DNA of 41,225 nt from a virus (lineage: Duplodnaviria; Heunggongvirae; Uroviricota; Caudoviricetes): positions 1 to 41,225 of IMG/VR virus record IMGVR_UViG_2734482782_000005; one strand, given 5' to 3'. Within the stretch, counting starts at the first letter, position 1, and each line of letters starts with the position of its first letter. Below are positions 28,455-36,081 of the stretch, one piece after another. Made by a program: the position numbers and the translations under genes. The notes beneath the pieces were generated by a model. That model did no database searches. It was not told the origin of the DNA and was given only the letters and a program-made list of their open reading frames with translations.

Positions 28455-29300
28455 TCACTCCTGCGCCCATGAAGGCATTTCAGTTTTCCCGTAATCTTTG
28501 GCGGCAAAGTTTTCCTGCATAGCTCGATGCTGCGGCCTCGGTTGAGATTTCCCCTTTGGAGTCTTGGGCTCAAAAATCCCCTGCCAACCACTGGCGATGC
28601 TCTGGTTTATAATTTCTTCAGGTGTATATCCCTTCTCCAGACTTCTGCTTAGAACGTTGATAGCCTGAGTGACGCTTTGCTTAGACTTGATCGACTTACC
28701 TATCTCCTTGCGATAAGTAACCCACGACAACCATGTTTCTGCTGATAACCAATCAGGCAACTCTGTTTCTAGCGGGTCGAACTTCTGAGAAACTTTTTTG
28801 GGGGATATAGGGGGTTTATTAATATTTTCTTTTGTCTTTAAAGAATGTCTTTTGTGTGTCTCTAACTTCGAGACATTGAGTGTCTCTAATTTGGAGACAT
28901 TTTTTGTCTCTAACTTCGAGACAAAGTTGCTAACTTGGAGACACTTGCTGAATTGCCACGCAGATACATCCATGTTTACACCGATTTGATTTCCATCCAT
29001 AAACAGGCAATTCATTGAAATCAGTTCTTTTTTAGCCTTGTTAACATTCTGCCTTGACAGTCCTGTTAACTGAGCAATTTGCTCATCGGCTATTCGATCT
29101 GTTTTCTTATTGAATCCAGATGTTTTCCGGACGTAGGCCAGCATAACTTTCAACTGGCGAGCAGTTAAATCGGCACTTGCGATAGCTTCCAGCAGATCGT
29201 TAGCGAATCTGGTGTAACCATCATCGATGTCAGCCACTCTTCGCTCCTGTTCGGCAAAGTTACCTCTGCCGAAGTTGAGTATTTTTGCTGTATTTGTCAT
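28455..29300 (-). CDS. O: Replication initiator O (lambda-type) containing the origin iterons
   Basis: 281 aa; N-terminus MTNTAKILNFGRGNFAEQERRVADIDDGY... matches recalled lambda O; internal VSKLET repeats encoded by iterons. Confidence 0.9.
   Translation of the reverse strand: MTNTAKILNFGRGNFAEQERRVADIDDGYTRFANDLLEAIASADLTARQLKVMLAYVRKTSGFNKKTDRIADEQIAQLTGLSRQNVNKAKKELISMNCLFMDGNQIGVNMDVSAWQFSKCLQVSNFVSKLETKNVSKLETLNVSKLETHKRHSLKTKENINKPPISPKKVSQKFDPLETELPDWLSAETWLSWVTYRKEIGKSIKSKQSVTQAINVLSRSLEKGYTPEEIINQSIASGWQGIFEPKTPKGKSQPRPQHRAMQENFAAKDYGKTEMPSWAQE
28800..28945. repeat. Lambda-type replication origin: four iterons with 24-bp periodicity plus adjacent AT-rich segment
   Basis: GTCTCTAA(C/T)TT(C/G)GAGACA copies starting 28858, 28882, 28906 and degenerate ~28929; AT-rich tract 28800-28855. 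Confidence 0.7.
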
Positions 29301-29309
29301 AATGACTCC

Positions 29310-29392
29310 TGTTGATAGATCCAGTAATGACCTCAGAACTCCATCTGGATTTGTTCAGAACGCTCGGTTGCCGCCGGGCGTTTTTTATTGGT
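29310..29392 (+). ncRNA. oop: OOP-like antisense RNA overlapping the 3' end of cII
   Basis: Plus-strand promoter TTGAGT (29275-29280), 17 bp, CATAAT (29298-29303); terminator CGCUCGG-UUGC-CGCCGGGCG + UUUUUUAUU at 29363-29392, as recalled for lambda to. Confidence 0.55.
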
Positions 29393-29629
29393 GAGTCCAT
29401 CAAGCGCATACTTAAAAGCCCTGCTAATCGGACTGATATCTGATGCCATTCCGAAAGCACACAAGACCGAGGCAATAAATCTCCAGTCCGTTCTGCTTAT
29501 CTTCGATTCATGACAGCCAATCATCTTTGCCAGACTGCGCTGGGTAAGTGTTGACAGGTTGATGAGTAAATCGGTTTCTGCGCGATCAACATCGCGCTGT
29601 GATAGTTTGCTGTAACTTGTTTGTTCCAT
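29333..29629 (-). CDS. cII: Transcriptional activator CII
   Basis: 98 aa; C-terminal ...LTNKKRPAATERSEQIQMEF matches recalled lambda CII. Confidence 0.9.
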   Translation of the reverse strand: MEQTSYSKLSQRDVDRAETDLLINLSTLTQRSLAKMIGCHESKISRTDWRFIASVLCAFGMASDISPISRAFKYALDGLTNKKRPAATERSEQIQMEF

Positions 29630-29693
29630 TTCTTACTATTTCCATAGGTAAATAATCACCAATACTCATCTTTCGATGAGCGATTAATTAGTT

Positions 29694-29728
29694 ACCGCGT
29701 TGTCGGCGGTGCAGATTGATAAAGAGCG
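29694..29728 (-). promoter_or_regulatory. nutR (boxA + boxB) between cro and cII
   Basis: Minus-strand CGCTCTTTATC (boxA-like) then hairpin ACCGC-CGACAAC-GCGGU (boxB, P22-type as recalled). Confidence 0.5.
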
Positions 29729-29738
29729 GATCCGCTTA

Positions 29739-29954
29739 TTAAGCGGCTTTGTGTTCCGGCGGGAACACGTCATCAAGACTGACTTTTGCGCCTAACTTGT
29801 TTAGGCACGCAACAAGAGCACGGCATGTTTTAAGGTCTGGGAAGCGACGACCAGATTCCCAATGTCCGATAGCTCCCTGTGTGCATCCAACCGCCTTAGC
29901 AAGTGTTGTTTGAGAGATATTCAGTGACTCTCTATATTTTCGTAGGTTGCTCAT
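29739..29954 (-). CDS. cro: Cro repressor (HTH)
   Basis: Internal ATG 29954 with GGAGGG RBS gives 71 aa MSNLRKYRESLNISQTTLAKAVGCTQGAIGHWESGRR...; divergent from cI. Confidence 0.85.
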   Translation of the reverse strand: MSNLRKYRESLNISQTTLAKAVGCTQGAIGHWESGRRFPDLKTCRALVACLNKLGAKVSLDDVFPPEHKAA

Positions 29955-30065
29955 ATGCCCTCCATAGTAACCATGAAACAATAATACGATATGTACTTTT
30001 GGAATGCAAACAAAAAATACATCTTGTGCATGGATGGTTTTAGTACATAGCGTAATAATAAGGAT
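29955..30065. promoter_or_regulatory. OR region: PR (minus) with overlapping operators, and PRM region
   Basis: Minus-strand PR: TTGCAT (plus 30004-30009), 17 bp, TATTAT (plus 29981-29986); operators 29983-29997 and 30042-56; weaker third at 30016-30030. Confidence 0.6.
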
Positions 30066-30725
30066 ATGAAAATGAAATGGTATGAACTGGCTAGATCCAG
30101 AATGAAAGAGCTCGGCATAACTCAAGAGAAGTTAGCTGAAGAGCTTGGTATGACGCAGGGTGGAATTGGTCACTGGTTGCGCGGATCTCGTCATCCATCT
30201 CTTGACGAGATTGGTGTGGTGTTTAAATACCTTGGTATTGATAACGTCTCATTCAACCACGACGGTACATTTTCACCTGCTGGCGAATACTCATCTGCCC
30301 CCGTTAAAAAACAATATGAGTACCCTGTTTTTTCTCATGTTCAGGCCGGGATGTTCTCGCCTGAGCTTAGAACCTTTACCAAAGGTGATGCGGAGAGATG
30401 GGTCAGCACAACCAAAAAAGCCAGTGATTGTGCGTTTTGGCTTGAAGTTGAAGGTAATTCCATGACCGCACCAACAGGATCCAAGCCAAGCTTTCCTGAC
30501 GGAATGTTAATTCTCGTTGACCCTGAGCAGGCTGTTGAGCCAGGAGATTTCTGCATAGCCAGACTTGGCGGTGACGAGTTTACCTTCAAGAAACTGATCA
30601 GGGATAGCGGTCAGGTGTTCCTACAACCACTAAACCCGCAATATCCAATGATCCCATGCAATGATAGCTGTTCCGTAGTAGGGAAAGTTATCGCCAGCCA
30701 GTGGCCTGAAGAGACATTTAGTTAA
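30066..30725 (+). CDS. cI: CI-type repressor with C-terminal S24 (LexA-like) autopeptidase domain
   Basis: 219 aa; N-terminal HTH; C-terminal ...GNSMTAPTG...FKKL...[12 protein letters not shown] resembles P22 C2. Confidence 0.9.
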
Positions 30726-30757
30726 CAGCCTCACCACTCTAAAACACACAACAATAA

Positions 30758-30786
30758 CCCGACCTTAGCGTCGGGTTTTCTTTTTC
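30758..30786 (+). terminator. Intrinsic terminator after cI
   Basis: CCCGAC-cuuagc-GUCGGG hairpin followed by UUUUCUUUUUC. Confidence 0.65.
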
Positions 30787-30850
30787 CAAAATATAAATCA
30801 ATAAAATACAAAGTGTTATAAAAAACCAACCACATTTAGAACATTTTGTA

Positions 30851-30879
30851 TTGACTCAATAAAGTACACATCGTACTAT
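30851..30879 (+). promoter_or_regulatory. PL promoter with overlapping operator
   Basis: TTGACT (30851-30856), 17-bp spacer, TACTAT (30874-30879); perfect palindrome AGTACacatcGTACT at 30863-30877. Confidence 0.6.
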
Positions 30880-30924
30880 TTAGCCATCAGCAGGAAGCTG
30901 GAAGCCAAACGGAACAGATTGGCA

Positions 30925-30959
30925 GGCTCTTTAACTTCGATGGGGCGCTGACAAAGCGC
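30925..30959 (+). promoter_or_regulatory. nutL (boxA + boxB)
   Basis: GGCTCTTTAAC boxA-like then GCGCUGACAAAGCGC hairpin identical to recalled P22 nutL boxB. Confidence 0.6.
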
Positions 30960-31078
30960 AAACAGATACCAAACGAGATGGGTTTGGCGGTGATGTGAAT
31001 TGCAGCTGCAACGACAGCAACCAGAAGATCAGCACCTGGCGCATCACCACCAAAGCCATTTCACATGAGGAAAATATC

Positions 31079-31387
31079 ATGACGGTAATCGTGTACGGAA
31101 AATCAACATTTGCAGGAAATGCCAAAACTCGCCGTCATGAGCGGCGCAGAAAGCTGGCTATCGAGCGTGATGCTATATGCAACATCATCGATTCGATCTT
31201 CGGCACAGACAGTGAGGAACCTGTTCAGGAAGCCCCGAGAAAGCGTTTAAGCATTTCTGAAAAAGCAATATCACTCGGCATCATTAGCAAATCAAATACA
31301 GATGCGAATAGCGGAAGCGTTTGTTTGCCTGAAGTTGCACTGTATGCTGCTGGTTACAGAAGGCAAAAACTAATTACAGCGAGGTAA
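31079..31387 (+). CDS. N: Antiterminator N (P22 gp24-type)
   Basis: ATG 31079 with GAGG RBS; MTVIVYGKSTFAGNAKTRRHERRRKLAIERD... arginine-rich motif; matches recalled P22 gp24. Confidence 0.85.
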   Translation: MTVIVYGKSTFAGNAKTRRHERRRKLAIERDAICNIIDSIFGTDSEEPVQEAPRKRLSISEKAISLGIISKSNTDANSGSVCLPEVALYAAGYRRQKLITAR

Positions 31388-31389
31388 AA

Positions 31390-31668
31390 ATGAAGCCTAG
31401 CATAACAATCAAGCCAGCGAGAGATAATAGCAGGAACCGCCGCAGAGAGGCCAGGAAGGCAGAAAGAGCAGAGAAGGAAAACAAGAGCCGGGAGGAGAGA
31501 AAGGCAGAGATTTTGGAAAAAGGAGGATTGGCTGCCGTGAGGGGTGAAAAAGCAGCTGAATTAGCAGTAGCTCACGAAAAGACAGAGATTGACAATAATT
31601 CTGGTGGAGATGCAATGTTTAAAGTTGTCAATCACGCCCATCAACGAAACCCCAAAAAGAAATGGTAA
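31390..31668 (+). CDS. Hypothetical basic/arginine-rich protein downstream of N
   Basis: 92-aa ORF, GAGG RBS, ATG 2 nt after N stop; no recognised domain. Confidence 0.5.
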   Translation: MKPSITIKPARDNSRNRRREARKAERAEKENKSREERKAEILEKGGLAAVRGEKAAELAVAHEKTEIDNNSGGDAMFKVVNHAHQRNPKKKW

Positions 31669-31670
31669 TC

Positions 31671-31694
31671 AACCCGTCCAAGACGGGTTTTTTA
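31671..31694 (+). terminator. Intrinsic terminator (tL1-like)
   Basis: CCCGUC-caa-GACGGG hairpin + UUUUUUAUU. Confidence 0.65.
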
Positions 31695-31725
31695 TTGCAA
31701 GCAAACCACTTATTTGAGATGAGAT

Positions 31726-32196
31726 ATGACAAAATCATGGAGCGTACCTTTTCCTGAATCAGAAACTGAACATGATGGAATGCCTGTTTTCTGGAGATTC
31801 CAGGCGACAGTTGAAGAAGATGGGATAAAAATATTCGCACTTCAATATATAGCTTTTCATCAGACAGAGCATTATGCATGGTTGGTTCCTGCGCATTGGA
31901 TTGTTGATTTTAAACCAGCACCAAATCAGTGGTTACAGGAATGGAAACAAAGGATAAATAGATATGCAATTAAGAAAGTAGCAAAAAATGCAGAAAGATC
32001 TTTTGCATTCCCGACGAAGAAACTTGCCATTGAAAGTTTATTGCGCCGGAAGAAATACCATTTGATGAGAATCAAACAAGATTTTGCTGTTGTATCAACT
32101 CTTGTTGATGGGATGAAGAATATTGATACATCAACACCAGATATTGAATATAACTTTGGACACAACCAAGAAACAGAAAATTGGGTGTTTTATTAG
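31726..32196 (+). CDS. Hypothetical 156-aa protein on an AT-rich insert between two terminators (unknown function)
   Basis: ATG 31726; clean ORF, Trp-rich, no TM segments; markedly AT-rich relative to flanking phage genes; no recognised family. Confidence 0.6.
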   Translation: MTKSWSVPFPESETEHDGMPVFWRFQATVEEDGIKIFALQYIAFHQTEHYAWLVPAHWIVDFKPAPNQWLQEWKQRINRYAIKKVAKNAERSFAFPTKKLAIESLLRRKKYHLMRIKQDFAVVSTLVDGMKNIDTSTPDIEYNFGHNQETENWVFY

Positions 32197-32298
32197 TACG
32201 AATAAGCACTGTGTATTCATTCCAACGAGTGAATACACGGAGCAATGTCGCTCGTAACTAAACAGGAGCCGACTTGTTCTGATTATTGGAAATCTTCT

Positions 32299-32326
32299 TT
32301 GCCCTCCTATGTGAGGGCAATTTTTT
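32299..32326 (+). terminator. Intrinsic terminator (tL2-like)
   Basis: UUGCCCUC-cuaugu-GAGGGCAA hairpin + UUUUUU. Confidence 0.7.
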
Positions 32327-32338
32327 GACGGAGGATAT

Positions 32339-33307
32339 ATGAGTGAAGTAACAGATTTAGTTGTTATTGAAAAAGCAAATGCAATGACTGTATTTCAGTC
32401 TGCCGACCAGATTGAAGAAATCCTTCAAAAGGTTGAACGTGAAGTTATGTCCTTTGTGCCTGATATCACAACGGCAAAGGGCAGAAAGGAGATCGCTTCT
32501 CTGGCGTATAAAGTTGCGCAGACGAAAACATATCTCGATGGTCTTGGCAAAGACCTTGTTGCTGAACTGAAGGAAATTCCAAAGCTAATTGATGCCAACC
32601 GCAAGACAGTGCGTGATCGACTTGATGAGCTGAAAGCCAAGGCGCGCCAGCCTCTTACTGATTATGAGGAAGAACAGGCGCGGATTAAAGCCGAAGAAGA
32701 AGCTAAGGCAGCAGCTGAAGCTCTCGCAAAGCAAATTGAGTCTGACCATGAAATAGCGATTTTGATGGATCGCGAATTTGACCGCCAAAGAGAAGAGGAA
32801 AGACTCAAAGCGGAGCAGGAAAAGCGAGAGCATGAAGAACGCTTAAAAAGAGAAGCTGAAGAGAAAGCCAGAGCAGAAGCCGAAGCAAAGGCAAAAGCCG
32901 AAATTGAAGCAGCAGCAAGGCGAGAAGCAGAAGCTAAGGCCGCAGCGGAACGTGCAGAGCGTGAACGCATTGAAGCCGAGCAACGAGCACAGCGCGAAGC
33001 AAAAGAGGCAGCAGAACGAGCTGAAAGAGAAAAGCAGGCGGCAATTGAAGCAGAACGCCGAAAAGCACAGGAGGAGGCTGAACGAATCCGGCGCGAGGCT
33101 GAAGCAAAAGAGCAAGCCAGAATAGCAGAAGAAAAAAGAATCAAGGACGAAGAAGAGCGTAGAGCAAAGGATAAAGCTCACCGGAAAGAAGTAAATAACA
33201 AAATACTTGCTGACCTTATCAAGGTTGGCGCATCAGAAGATGTTGCTAAAAATATCATAACAGCCATCGTAAAAGGCGAAGTATTCGCAACAAAAATAAC
33301 CTACTAA
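32339..33307 (+). CDS. Hypothetical coiled-coil protein with long E/A/K/R-rich repeat region
   Basis: 322-aa ORF, GGAGG RBS; central ~150 aa of KAEAE/RAERE-type heptad-like repeats flanked by globular ends. Confidence 0.6.
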   Translation: MSEVTDLVVIEKANAMTVFQSADQIEEILQKVEREVMSFVPDITTAKGRKEIASLAYKVAQTKTYLDGLGKDLVAELKEIPKLIDANRKTVRDRLDELKAKARQPLTDYEEEQARIKAEEEAKAAAEALAKQIESDHEIAILMDREFDRQREEERLKAEQEKREHEERLKREAEEKARAEAEAKAKAEIEAAARREAEAKAAAERAERERIEAEQRAQREAKEAAERAEREKQAAIEAERRKAQEEAERIRREAEAKEQARIAEEKRIKDEEERRAKDKAHRKEVNNKILADLIKVGASEDVAKNIITAIVKGEVFATKITY

Positions 33308-33330
33308 TAAACCAACATAAGGAACCACCC

Positions 33331-33462
33331 ATGATTTACGCAATCGCGGGAGGCGCTCGCATGGGTGCCTTCCAACTAAATGAATCTTTACTTGAACGAA
33401 TCACCCGTAAATTACGTGACGGATGGAAAAGAGTTGAGGTCTTATTATGCGCAATGAAATAG
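33331..33462 (+). CDS. cIII: CIII-like FtsH inhibitor
   Basis: Manually translated 43-aa ORF; ...ESLLERITRKLRDGWKR... matches recalled lambda CIII core; AGGAA RBS. Confidence 0.6.
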   Translation: MIYAIAGGARMGAFQLNESLLERITRKLRDGWKRVEVLLCAMK

Positions 33463-33599
33463 CCATCAATCACCAGATGCTTCGTGCGGCACAAAACAAA
33501 GCAGTAATAGCCCGATTTATTGGTGATTCCAAAATGTGGCTTGAAGCAAATAAAGCGATGAAATCAGCTATCAACCTTCCGTGGTATCGCAGGAAATGA
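33447..33599 (+). CDS. kil: Kil-like small protein (host division inhibitor)
   Basis: Manually translated 50-aa ORF; ...IARFIGDSKMWLEA... resembles recalled lambda Kil; overlaps cIII end. Confidence 0.45.
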   Translation: MRNEIAINHQMLRAAQNKAVIARFIGDSKMWLEANKAMKSAINLPWYRRK

Positions 33600-33754
33600 G
33601 TTTTACAGATAACTGGTCAGACGAAGAATTCATTCGTCAGATGAAAGATTTAATCGGTAACGAAGGAGATATTCATGTCACTTGCAACCACAGTGAAGGA
33701 GAGCAAGTTACAGAGACGCATGTACACGCAGAAAGCTCTCTGGTATCGCCATAA
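33596..33754 (+). CDS. Small hypothetical ORF
   Basis: Manually translated 52-aa ORF with ATGA overlap to kil. Confidence 0.3.
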   Translation: MSFTDNWSDEEFIRQMKDLIGNEGDIHVTCNHSEGEQVTETHVHAESSLVSP

Positions 33755-33853
33755 TGGTGACCGCGAAGGAATGCGGGTATGCCTTAATTTGTCCCGAGTC
33801 GAAGTATTAAATCAGCGTTATTTCCTTGGGCCGTGTCCATTCTGAGGTGAATT

Positions 33854-34561
33854 ATGGATTTGAACAAATTCGATGAGCCATTCAGCCCTGAAGATATCGA
33901 ATGGCGAATACAGCAAAGCGGTAAAACACGCGATGGCAAGGTGTGGGCTATGGTGCTGGCTTATGTCACGAACCGGGCAATCATGAAACGCCTGGACGAT
34001 GTTTGCGGCAAAGCAGGATGGCGCAATGAATACCGCGATATTCCCAACAACGGCGGCGTTGAATGCGGCATATCAATAAAGATTGATTCCGAATGGGTAA
34101 CCAAATGGGATGCTGCTGAAAACACGCAGGTAGAAGCCGTCAAAGGTGGTCGTTCCGGTGCAATGAAGCGCGCTGCCGTTCAGTGGGGAATCGGTCGGTA
34201 TCTGTATAACCTTGAGGAAGGTTTCGCACAAACATCTCTCGATAAAAAGCAGGGGTGGCACAGGGCAAAACTGAAGGATGGAACAGGATTTTACTGGTCC
34301 CCTCCATCGCTGCCGGGATGGGCAATGCCAGCATCTGGAAATCAACCATCACCAGAAAATACCAACCAGAAATCTCCATCGGTTGACTGCGAACAAATCC
34401 TGAAAGACTTCAGCGATTATGCGTCAACAGAAACTGACAAGAAAAAACTCATCGAGCGTTATCAGCGTGACTGGCAATTAATGGCTGGCAACGAGGAGGC
34501 GCAGGCTAAATGCGTTCAGGTAATGAACATCAGAGTTAACGAACTAAAACAGGCGGCATAA
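33854..34561 (+). CDS. Rad52-family single-strand annealing recombinase (Sak-like)
   Basis: 235 aa; ...GVECGISIKIDSEWVTKWDAAEN...GAMKRAAVQWGIGRYLYNLE... typical of Rad52/Sak; directly upstream of ssb. Confidence 0.7.
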   Translation: MDLNKFDEPFSPEDIEWRIQQSGKTRDGKVWAMVLAYVTNRAIMKRLDDVCGKAGWRNEYRDIPNNGGVECGISIKIDSEWVTKWDAAENTQVEAVKGGRSGAMKRAAVQWGIGRYLYNLEEGFAQTSLDKKQGWHRAKLKDGTGFYWSPPSLPGWAMPASGNQPSPENTNQKSPSVDCEQILKDFSDYASTETDKKKLIERYQRDWQLMAGNEEAQAKCVQVMNIRVNELKQAA

Positions 34562-35035
34562 ATGGCAAGCAGAGGCGTAAATAAGGTGATCATTATTGGT
34601 CGCCTTGGGCATGATCCAGAAATCAGATATTCACCATCAGGAACGGCATTTGCAAACCTTACAGTTGCTACGTCAGAACAATGGCGTGATAAGCAAACTG
34701 GAGAGCAAAAGGAGCAGACGGAGTGGCACCGCGTGGTAATGAGCGGGAAACTGGCAGAAATTGCCAGCGAATATCTGCGAAAAGGCTCTGAGGTTTATCT
34801 TGAAGGCAAATTGCGGACAAGAAAATGGCAGGATCAAAGCGGACAGGATCGGTTCACTACCGAAGTTATCGTGGGCGTTGGTGGAACCATGCAAATGCTT
34901 GGTGGCAAGCAAGGAGGAAATGAACAGTCTTCACCTCAGCGAAATAACGGTCAGCAACAAAGACAGCAACCTCAGCAGCAATGGAATCACAGCGAACCAC
35001 CTATGAACTTCGACGATTCGGATATTCCGTTCTAG
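34562..35035 (+). CDS. ssb: Single-stranded DNA-binding protein
   Basis: 157 aa; OB-fold N-terminus, G/Q-rich linker, acidic C-terminal tail ...DDSDIPF. Confidence 0.9.
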
Positions 35036-35044
35036 GAGCTGAAT

Positions 35045-35524
35045 ATGAAAATCTGCTCAAGATGCCATCAACAGAAGGAAGAAAGGGACTTTCAAATCAG
35101 AAGAGCATCCAGAGATGGATTAACTGCCGCTTGCCGGGCTTGCCTGGCTGAATACGACAAAGAGCGCGCGGGATTGCCACATCGAGTATCAGCAAGGAGA
35201 GAATATCAATCATCGGAACGCGGCAGAGAACGGTGTAACGCAGCCAAAAAGCGGTTCATTCAGAGCAACCCATGGAAAAGAAAAGCCCACATCATCGTGG
35301 GTAATTTTTTGCGCGACGGTAAGCTAATCCGACCACCACAATGTGAGTGCTGCGGATCAGAATGTAAACCACAGGCGCACCACTGCGACTACAGCAAACC
35401 AACCGATGTGATGTGGCTCTGCAAGTCATGTCATGTCGAGTGGCACAAACATAACAAACCTATCTACCCAGACGAGGAGACAGTAACTCTCCCTTTCCCT
35501 CGTCACGCTATTCACGCAATTTAA
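35045..35524 (+). CDS. HNH nuclease-domain protein
   Basis: 159 aa; C-terminal CECCG...AHHCDY...WLCKSCHVEWHKH HNH/zinc-finger motif. Confidence 0.6.
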   Translation: MKICSRCHQQKEERDFQIRRASRDGLTAACRACLAEYDKERAGLPHRVSARREYQSSERGRERCNAAKKRFIQSNPWKRKAHIIVGNFLRDGKLIRPPQCECCGSECKPQAHHCDYSKPTDVMWLCKSCHVEWHKHNKPIYPDEETVTLPFPRHAIHAI

Positions 35525-35532
35525 GGACTTAC

Positions 35533-36081
35533 ATGAATCACTTGATGGTTGACCTTGAAACAATGGGCAACGGGCCATACTCGCCAGTTATTTCTATTGG
35601 GGCGGTATTCTTTGACCCGAATACCGGAGAAACAGGAGAAGAGTTCTCGGTAAATATCTCGCTTGAGTCATCAATGCGATATCGAGCGCGTCCTGACGCT
35701 TCAACGATTTTATGGTGGATGGAACAGAGTGAAGAAGCCAGAAAATCGCTAACCAGCAACACTCAGGAGCTTTCAACGGCTCTTTCATGGTTATCTGAAT
35801 TCATCATAAAGAACGCTAACCACAAATTCGTTCAGGTTTGGGGGAATGGGGCATCATTTGACTGCGTTATTCTCCGCAACAGTTATTCGCTGACAGGGCA
35901 GCCAGTTCCGTGGCAGTGGTGGAATGACCGCGACGTAAGAACAATCGTCGAACTTGGGAAGGTAATAGGATTCGACCCTAAGCGAGATATGCCATTCAAA
36001 GGAACTCGCCACAACGCGCTTGATGATGCCATTCACCAAGCCAAATACGTTTCAGCGATCTGGAAAAAGTTAGCTAAATAA
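35533..36081 (+). CDS. DEDDh 3'-5' exonuclease (DnaQ-like fold)
   Basis: 182 aa; motifs VDLETMG, WGNGASFD, HNALDDA. Confidence 0.7.
   Translation: MNHLMVDLETMGNGPYSPVISIGAVFFDPNTGETGEEFSVNISLESSMRYRARPDASTILWWMEQSEEARKSLTSNTQELSTALSWLSEFIIKNANHKFVQVWGNGASFDCVILRNSYSLTGQPVPWQWWNDRDVRTIVELGKVIGFDPKRDMPFKGTRHNALDDAIHQAKYVSAIWKKLAK

Follow-up and report, generated by a model that had tools for sequence, protein, structure and literature searches.

A conserved AT-rich gene of the HK97 gp45/933W L0079 family in a cassette slot of a lambdoid early-left operon

Results

Organization of the early-left region

The window, that is the whole stretch of 41,225 nucleotides of viral DNA that was analysed, corresponds to an Sf6/P22-like temperate phage or prophage of Escherichia coli, and at the ORF under study its + strand runs in the direction of PL transcription. 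At the upstream end of the region lies cI (30066-30725), followed by a hairpin at 30756-30777 that scores as a terminator on both strands and at which the PRM/cI transcript likely ends, a short distance ahead of PL. A candidate PL promoter with the sequence TTGACT-17-TACTAT is located on the + strand at 30851-30879 and matches the consensus at 9 of 12 positions. We infer that this site is PL, as its position between the cI terminator and nutL fits such an assignment. The nutL site itself (30926-30959, + strand) could be read directly from the sequence and consists of a boxA-like GCTCTTTAAC at 30926-30935 and the boxB GCGCTGACAAAGCGC at 30945-30959, the latter being of the P22 type. Downstream of nutL, the + strand encodes an antiterminator N of the P22 gene 24 type (31079-31387; Pfam PF25694 N_peptide, E 3.9e-38; phrog_271), which carries the P22-type arginine-rich motif GNAKTRRHERRRKLAIE. 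N is followed by a Nun-like ORF, a first terminator, the ORF under study (31726-32196) and a 142-nt structured non-coding stretch that ends in a second terminator. Beyond terminator 2, the operon continues with a gene for a 322-aa Glu/Ala/Lys-rich protein, small ORFs, a Rad52/Erf-type annealing protein and SSB. The 322-aa protein gene (32339-33307, + strand) belongs to phrog_1376, which is of unknown function, and has no Pfam family; it is common to Sf6, IME10 and other P22-like phages, and its product, which some records label 'TolA protein', has a long Glu/Ala/Lys/Arg-rich, coiled-coil-like middle part.

The Nun-like ORF (31390-31668, + strand) encodes 92 amino acids and was assigned to phrog_5632, 'Nun-like transcription termination factor', with an E-value of 1.5e-29. 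Its C-terminus, VVNHAHQRNPKKKW, matched the Nun chain of HK022 (6alg_N) with an E-value of 5.4e-5 and is nearly identical to the motif with which HK022 Nun arrests RNA polymerase, whereas the N-terminal arginine-rich motif of the Nun-like ORF differs. In HK022, Nun replaces N, and it is therefore unusual that N and a Nun-like protein are encoded in tandem within a single PL operon. Among 5426 complete E. coli genomes, 33 have the Nun-like module with its terminator, one of them being E. coli W; in the phage collection, a tblastn search gave no match for the module.

Both terminators flanking the gene are on the + strand. Terminator 1 (31671-31694) has an 8-bp stem with five GC pairs and a 3-nt loop (31671-31689), followed by TTTTTTATT with its six T's, while terminator 2 (32299-32326) combines an 8-bp stem, likewise with five GC pairs, and a 6-nt loop (stem-loop 32299-32320) with the tract TTTTTT. 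Their fold energies are -14 and -16.5 kcal/mol, respectively, with z-scores of -3.3 and -2.9 relative to shuffled sequences, and both are reported just 3′ of stop codons. Altogether, 13 terminator-like sites were found in the 6-kb region, compared to an expectation of 6.7 +/- 2.9, and terminators 1 and 2 ranked among the three best.

The initial annotation had located the gene in the PL operon, had seen no obvious sigma70 promoter and had proposed that expression probably depends on N-antiterminated PL transcription only. The operon context is indeed evident from cI, the PL-like site, nutL and N upstream, and no sigma-70-like site was found on the + strand between 30879 and 33602. The distance from the preceding stop codon to the ORF is only 57 nt and is taken up by terminator 1 and the ribosome-binding site. 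Since a dedicated promoter is absent and an intrinsic terminator lies ahead of the gene, N-antiterminated PL transcription is the obvious route for its expression in this phage, and the proposal is supported by the anatomy of the region. N, loaded at the P22-type nutL, would allow RNA polymerase to read through the terminator at 31671-31694 into the ORF, so that the gene of this phage would be transcribed only from PL and with N present. It would be an early gene of the lytic cycle and should be silent in a lysogen.

The ORF encodes a conserved soluble protein

The ORF extends on the + strand from an ATG at 31726 to a TAG stop codon at 32194-32196 and comprises 156 codons in an intact frame, precisely as initially annotated. 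The exact protein sequence is present in the database as WP_047667604.1. The gene had also been described as AT-rich relative to its neighbours, which holds: its GC content is 0.363 (36.3%; GC3, 0.287), as compared to 0.45-0.49 for the neighbouring genes and a window mean of 0.464 (46.4%), which corresponds to the 3.8th percentile of 471-nt windows. A transmembrane segment is absent, as previously stated, the maximum Kyte-Doolittle mean over 19 residues being 0.56.

An AT-rich ORF that has carried the annotation 'hypothetical' for 25 years and that, in the window, is preceded by a weak Shine-Dalgarno sequence (GAGA, not GAGG) could conceivably be a chance or decaying reading frame without function. 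However, comparison with the Pectobacterium and Brenneria copies revealed strong purifying selection, with pS values of 0.78-0.92 (synonymous sites being saturated) against pN values of 0.18-0.27, and the dN/dS ratio relative to the HK97 copy was 0.19. The 156-codon frame was retained in 80 of 80 IMG/VR loci, which are near-identical E. coli prophage copies obtained from a close alignment and were used for flank statistics only. Together with conservation across genera and the confident AlphaFold2 prediction described below, these selection figures and intact frames effectively refute the non-gene reading, to which we assign a negligible probability. We conclude that ORF 31726-32196 encodes a real, soluble, folded protein of 156 amino acids that belongs to the HK97 gp45/933W L0079 family (PHROG 1636).

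The family assignment is unambiguous, as residues 1-156 of the protein aligned with positions 1-156 of the 156 positions in the PHROG 1636 profile with an E-value of 5.2e-110. HK97 gp45 (NP_037731) and 933W L0079 (AAD25424) are 97-98% identical to the protein over all 156 residues, and other full-length copies at this level of identity are phi24B vb_24B_11c, BP-4795 ORF18 and an unannotated ORF in H-19B. Full-length homologues with 54-98% identity were found in Escherichia, Pectobacterium, Brenneria, Cronobacter and Rosenbergiella, the homologues from outside Escherichia (Pectobacterium, Brenneria, Cronobacter, Rosenbergiella and metagenomes) accounting for the range of 54-85%. Members lie on the PL strand of the early-left (PL) operon of lambdoid prophages, either after N, as in the window, or before xis-int; the Pectobacterium and Brenneria homologues are at this different place in the same operon, directly upstream of xis-int. 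The protein is encoded in 86 phage records, and the whole gp45 cassette was present in 563 of the 5426 complete E. coli genomes, or about one in ten. Most Stx phages carry the gene, including 933W, phi24B, BP-4795, H-19B and many Stx1a and Stx2a phages.

None of these matches comes with a function. PHROG 1636 is annotated as being of unknown function, the matches in PHROGs were to unknown-function families only, and all database names of the protein are 'hypothetical' or 'prophage protein'. At E-values up to 1, searches of Pfam and NCBIfam returned zero families, including the models of Ral, Ea10 and other named accessory proteins of the PL operon, and the only match among the PADLOC defence models, Cas1_II (E 0.0095, 13 bits), was at the level of noise. 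The earlier view that the protein has no recognizable domain is thus correct with respect to Pfam, but it overlooked full-length membership of PHROG 1636. Likewise, the homology searches and structure prediction that the initial annotation had proposed yielded no characterized homologue and no match to a solved fold, but showed the gene to be already catalogued as HK97 gp45/933W L0079. The gene has long been catalogued though it is uncharacterized, and the sequence itself is no discovery. Literature searches by gene names, accession numbers, locus tags, peptide and lambdoid anti-defence hotspots retrieved no paper on the gene from the searchable full text, which is incomplete, and the protein is absent from the sequences in the supplements of the large screen of coliphage accessory genes by Silas et al.

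The gene occupies a cassette slot

The boundaries of the gene cassette became apparent by alignment of the window with HK97 and 933W, where homology starts 26 nt before the ATG (∼31700) and ends at the T-tract of terminator 2. The 5′ boundary is formed by a conserved 26-nt leader with the ribosome-binding site, AGCAAACCACTTATTTGAGATGAGAT (31700-31725, + strand), which is common to HK97, 933W and three further loci (L014, L016 and L017). At 31716-31725 of this leader, the window reads GAGATGAGAT and 64 of the 80 IMG/VR loci read GAGGTGAGAT. The change from GAGG to GAGA represents a weaker Shine-Dalgarno sequence, and translation of the window copy may be less efficient.

The 3′ boundary of the slot is formed by a conserved structured non-coding element (32206-32298, + strand) together with terminator 2. 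The element contains a perfect 12-bp hairpin at 32211-32238, and the stretch from 32197 to 32338 folds with an energy of -50.9 kcal/mol (z -5.8). Identical or near-identical copies (>95%) of the region ∼32206-32326 are present in HK97, in 933W and in lambda, where it lies between ral and ea10. With >95% identity, this 3′ element was found in 2241 of the 5426 E. coli genomes and in 327 phage records, and it is much commoner than any of the cargo genes beside it. Terminator 2 is annotated as a putative terminator in HK97 and is homologous to the lambda terminator between ral and ea10; we take this region to be the tL2a of lambda. We discarded the idea of a 3′ UTR and terminator specific to the ORF, as the element is also present in lambda, which has no such ORF. 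No RNA family was detected by Rfam within 29000-36000 at E-values up to 1. Apart from termination, the 3′ element may have a further role, for instance in processing or stability, or as a recombination linker.

Direct indications for cassette exchange were provided by E. coli strain 10 (L016, 3815-4440). This strain has the same module of N, Nun-like ORF and terminator, and its leader of 26 nt and the location of its ATG are identical as well, but the slot holds an unrelated 140-aa hydrophobic ORF (phrog_3054), after which the same 3′ element follows. Because the same leader and 3′ element surround an unrelated gene in strain 10, the region is a cassette slot. Upstream of the leader, the 80 IMG/VR loci display 21 distinct sequences, whereas the 3′ element is present in 68 of them, 64 times at the same 9-nt offset. 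The linker ...AATAAACACTGCACTG precedes some gp45 copies and, in lambda as well as strain 10, is also found ahead of the 3′ element. Cassette exchange is precise to the start codon, with the linker AATAAACACTGCACTG recurring at cassette junctions. This suggests that cargo may be exchanged by recombination at short conserved linkers.

The aligned flanks show that the ORF is a swappable accessory cassette in a slot between N and the terminator element that follows ral in lambda. Alternative cargoes of this one slot are sieB and ral in lambda, the membrane-type ORF in strain 10 and gp45 in HK97, 933W and the window. The initial annotation had described the position as typical for genes of the ral/sieB type. 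This was confirmed, the 3′ flank being at least 95% identical to the element after ral in a lambda prophage, and since the flanks in strain 10 hold an unrelated gene, the positional argument is supported by flank homology and goes beyond analogy.

These boundaries bear on the location of the ORF between two strong terminators, which the initial annotation had pointed out. Both terminators are real and on the + strand, but both belong to the neighbouring modules or flank. Terminator 1 is outside the block of gp45 homology that starts at ∼31700, and HK97 and 933W have neither a terminator between N and the gp45/L0079 gene nor a Nun-like module. Terminator 1 is part of the adjacent Nun-like module, from where it would gate entry into the cassette, and the layout between two terminators is an accident of neighbouring modules.

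The slot anatomy invites the question of whether the gene could be a prophage-expressed moron that serves superinfection exclusion, defence or lysogenic conversion, like lambda sieB or HK97 gp15. Its low GC content, its presence or absence between conserved flanks and the terminator downstream would all suit a moron, other occupants of the slot are lambda sieB and the membrane-type ORF of strain 10, and a benefit to the host could explain why the gene is so prevalent in E. coli prophages (563 of 5426 genomes). However, in the window there is a strong terminator and no promoter-like site directly upstream, the gene is oriented in the same direction as the repressed PL transcript, and its product is soluble without a transmembrane segment. 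Also, the only PADLOC match was at noise level, and relatives of the gene reside in genomes of virulent-type phages, within strings of early genes. We therefore consider prophage expression of this kind improbable.

Predicted structure and wider superfamily

A profile search of 1.84 billion cluster representatives identified 86 relatives (representatives at 50% identity), with profile E-values to this wider superfamily reaching 1e-10. Most of these relatives are 130-160 aa long, share 18-28% identity and belong to phrog_13631 and phrog_25384. The long proteins P0062 and P0080 were discarded as candidate domain fusions, being repetitive and spurious matches to the profile, and P0052 merely has an N-terminal extension, which is not an informative fusion. 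The superfamily is spread over Stx and HK97-like coliphages and phages of Vibrio, Erwinia, Rhizobium, Achromobacter and Bacteroidota, and its members are found in the early-gene strings of these diverse phages.

When 82 relatives were included in the alignment, AlphaFold2 produced a model with a pLDDT of 95.9 and a pTM of 0.83, as compared to a pLDDT of 72 with 21 close homologues only. The model predicts strands at residues 19-30, 33-46, 50-55 and 83-86, short helices at 57-61 and 66-74, a 33-residue helix at 98-130 and an ordered C-terminal tail. A search of solved structures gave no significant match for the protein, while Foldseek returned 12 structural matches in BFVD (E 2e-7 to 1e-3; TM 0.45-0.65), all of them uncharacterized. 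The confident model thus points to a fold without a solved relative.

Conservation across the superfamily is confined to the near-invariant residues G33, T47, K87 and A101 and a basic motif, K..V.K....RFAF.TK..A..SL..RK..QL.HLK. Residues 56-131 have a net charge of +11, whereas the termini are acidic, and the enterobacterial subfamily has conserved tails with the motifs SWxVPFPESE (N-terminal) and YNFGHNxETExWxF (C-terminal). The best PDB profile match, to the GIY-YIG protein 1zg2, was non-significant (E 0.48), but there are locally similar segments (AFPSKEEAM versus AFPTKKLAI and RRKKEQL versus RRKKYHL) that might be taken to indicate a highly diverged enzyme, such as a degenerate GIY-YIG-type nuclease. 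In the ORF protein, neither the GIY, YIG, Arg and Glu motifs of that superfamily nor its fold could be recognized, and we consider a diverged enzyme very improbable.

No conserved partner gene was apparent in any of the gene neighbourhoods examined, including those of distant homologues, and the neighbours named in the following were each encountered a single time. A homologue in a Vibrio phage (L006, 5801-6963) adjoins genes for a cro-like HTH protein and pRha, that of phage Bas81 (L102, 3501-4798) adjoins a ParB-like gene and RusA, and that of Pantoea phage LIET2 (L103, 2465-3980) adjoins a cytosine methyltransferase and TerB. Such neighbours could be reconciled with a nucleic-acid-binding accessory factor that serves the phage's own early transcription, replication, recombination or lysis-lysogeny decision, host immunity not being its target. 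In the window, N and the Nun-like gene are located nearby and Erf and SSB downstream. The basic central region (residues 56-131, with a charge of +11) also fits this idea, as do the K/R positions that are conserved in the long helix. On the other hand, the gene is patchily distributed among otherwise near-identical lambdoid phages and lambda lacks it entirely, its position in the operon is variable, no neighbour is conserved, and the protein contains neither an HTH nor another known DNA-binding fold. Such a role in phage development is a serious contender, but we think it unlikely.

Discussion

The present analysis places ORF 31726-32196 in the PL operon of a lambdoid phage as a conserved accessory gene, the identity of which with HK97 gp45 and 933W L0079 explains nothing mechanistically, because none of these proteins has an assigned function. 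Regarding the anti-defence or host-modulating role that had been suggested for the gene, no homology, fold match or publication bears on the matter. The absence of matches to known families, defence models and solved structures, the pattern of conservation and charge, which fits binding, and the lack of a conserved partner gene lead us to infer that the product is a non-enzymatic binding protein. Our best guess, which is a tentative one, is that this protein uses its conserved basic surface in early counter-defence or host takeover. This role appears the most plausible in view of the accessory distribution of the gene, its early timing, the hot-spot location, the absence of catalytic-type conservation and the presence of relatives in unrelated phages.

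According to this tentative model, binding would be stoichiometric and would involve the basic surface composed of strand 83-86, the loop that follows and the first half of helix 98-130 (KKVAKNAERSFAF...RRKKYHLMRIK). Candidates for the binding partner would be nucleic acids and acidic proteins of the host, and target specificity may be determined by the acidic tails that are conserved at both termini in the enterobacterial subfamily. The protein would most likely act in counter-defence or host takeover early in infection, while being dispensable on laboratory hosts. A more far-reaching version, which we consider possible but doubtful, holds that gp45/L0079 is the founder of a structurally unprecedented family of early effectors that neutralize host immunity or another host function via the basic helix, and that the slot between N and the terminator is a general site for counter-defence genes.

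Roughly a tenth of the complete E. coli genomes and most Shiga-toxin phages carry the gene, which adjoins N, would be expressed at the onset of the lytic programme and has remained uncharacterized after 25 years in the databases. What is new here is the anatomy of the cassette slot, the assignment of both terminators to neighbouring modules, the confident model of a fold without a solved relative, and the wider phage superfamily. If the protein turns out to be a counter-defence or host-takeover factor, it would add a new family, and the slot from N to the terminator, with its conserved leader and terminator flanks, would be worth searching for further such genes. Otherwise, the gene is one of many ordinary uncharacterized accessory genes.

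Comparison with known systems

The closest known counterparts are HK97 gp45, 933W L0079, phi24B vb_24B_11c and BP-4795 ORF18, which share the leader, the 3′ element and the place in the PL operon directly after N. The HK97/933W-type loci differ from the window in having no Nun-like gene or terminator between N and the gene. Members of the wider superfamily (phrog_13631 and phrog_25384; for example A0A0A0YXB3 of Erwinia phage phiEa2809) share the three-stranded sheet, the short strand and the long basic helix, but they are only 18-28% identical, lack the SWxVPFPESE and YNFGHNxETExWxF tails of the enterobacterial subfamily and are likewise uncharacterized. Tudor/PWWP/MBT-type (SH3-like) barrels and PipX are also among the closest known systems.

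Morons of lambdoid phages, such as HK97 gp15, were reportedly defined by Juhala and colleagues in 2000. The ORF is moron-like in being an extra gene between conserved flanks, with a deviant base composition (GC 0.363 versus 0.464) and a terminator downstream, and the same flanks hold ral in lambda, the unrelated ORF in strain 10 and the gp45 ORF in the window. It differs from a moron in that it has no promoter of its own, no sigma-70-like site being present on the + strand of 30879-33602, and in that the downstream terminator appears to belong to the flank, which is common to phages without the gene, and not to the insert. The absence of an own promoter and the origin of the terminator in the conserved flank indicate that the ORF relies on transcription of the operon and does not form an autonomous unit.

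As for the lambda genes, ral and sieB are found in this very slot, which is bounded by N and by the conserved terminator element ahead of ea10/ssb, with a 3′ flank that is at least 95% identical. An exclusion gene of the SieB type would encode a membrane protein and be expressed from the prophage independently of PL, whereas the ORF in the window is on the PL strand, has no promoter and encodes a protein without a transmembrane segment. The protein also has no sequence similarity to Ral (no Pfam match at E-values up to 1) and is longer, with 156 aa as compared to the 66 aa of Ral. Nevertheless, like lambda ral, the ORF is a small accessory gene that would be transcribed from PL.
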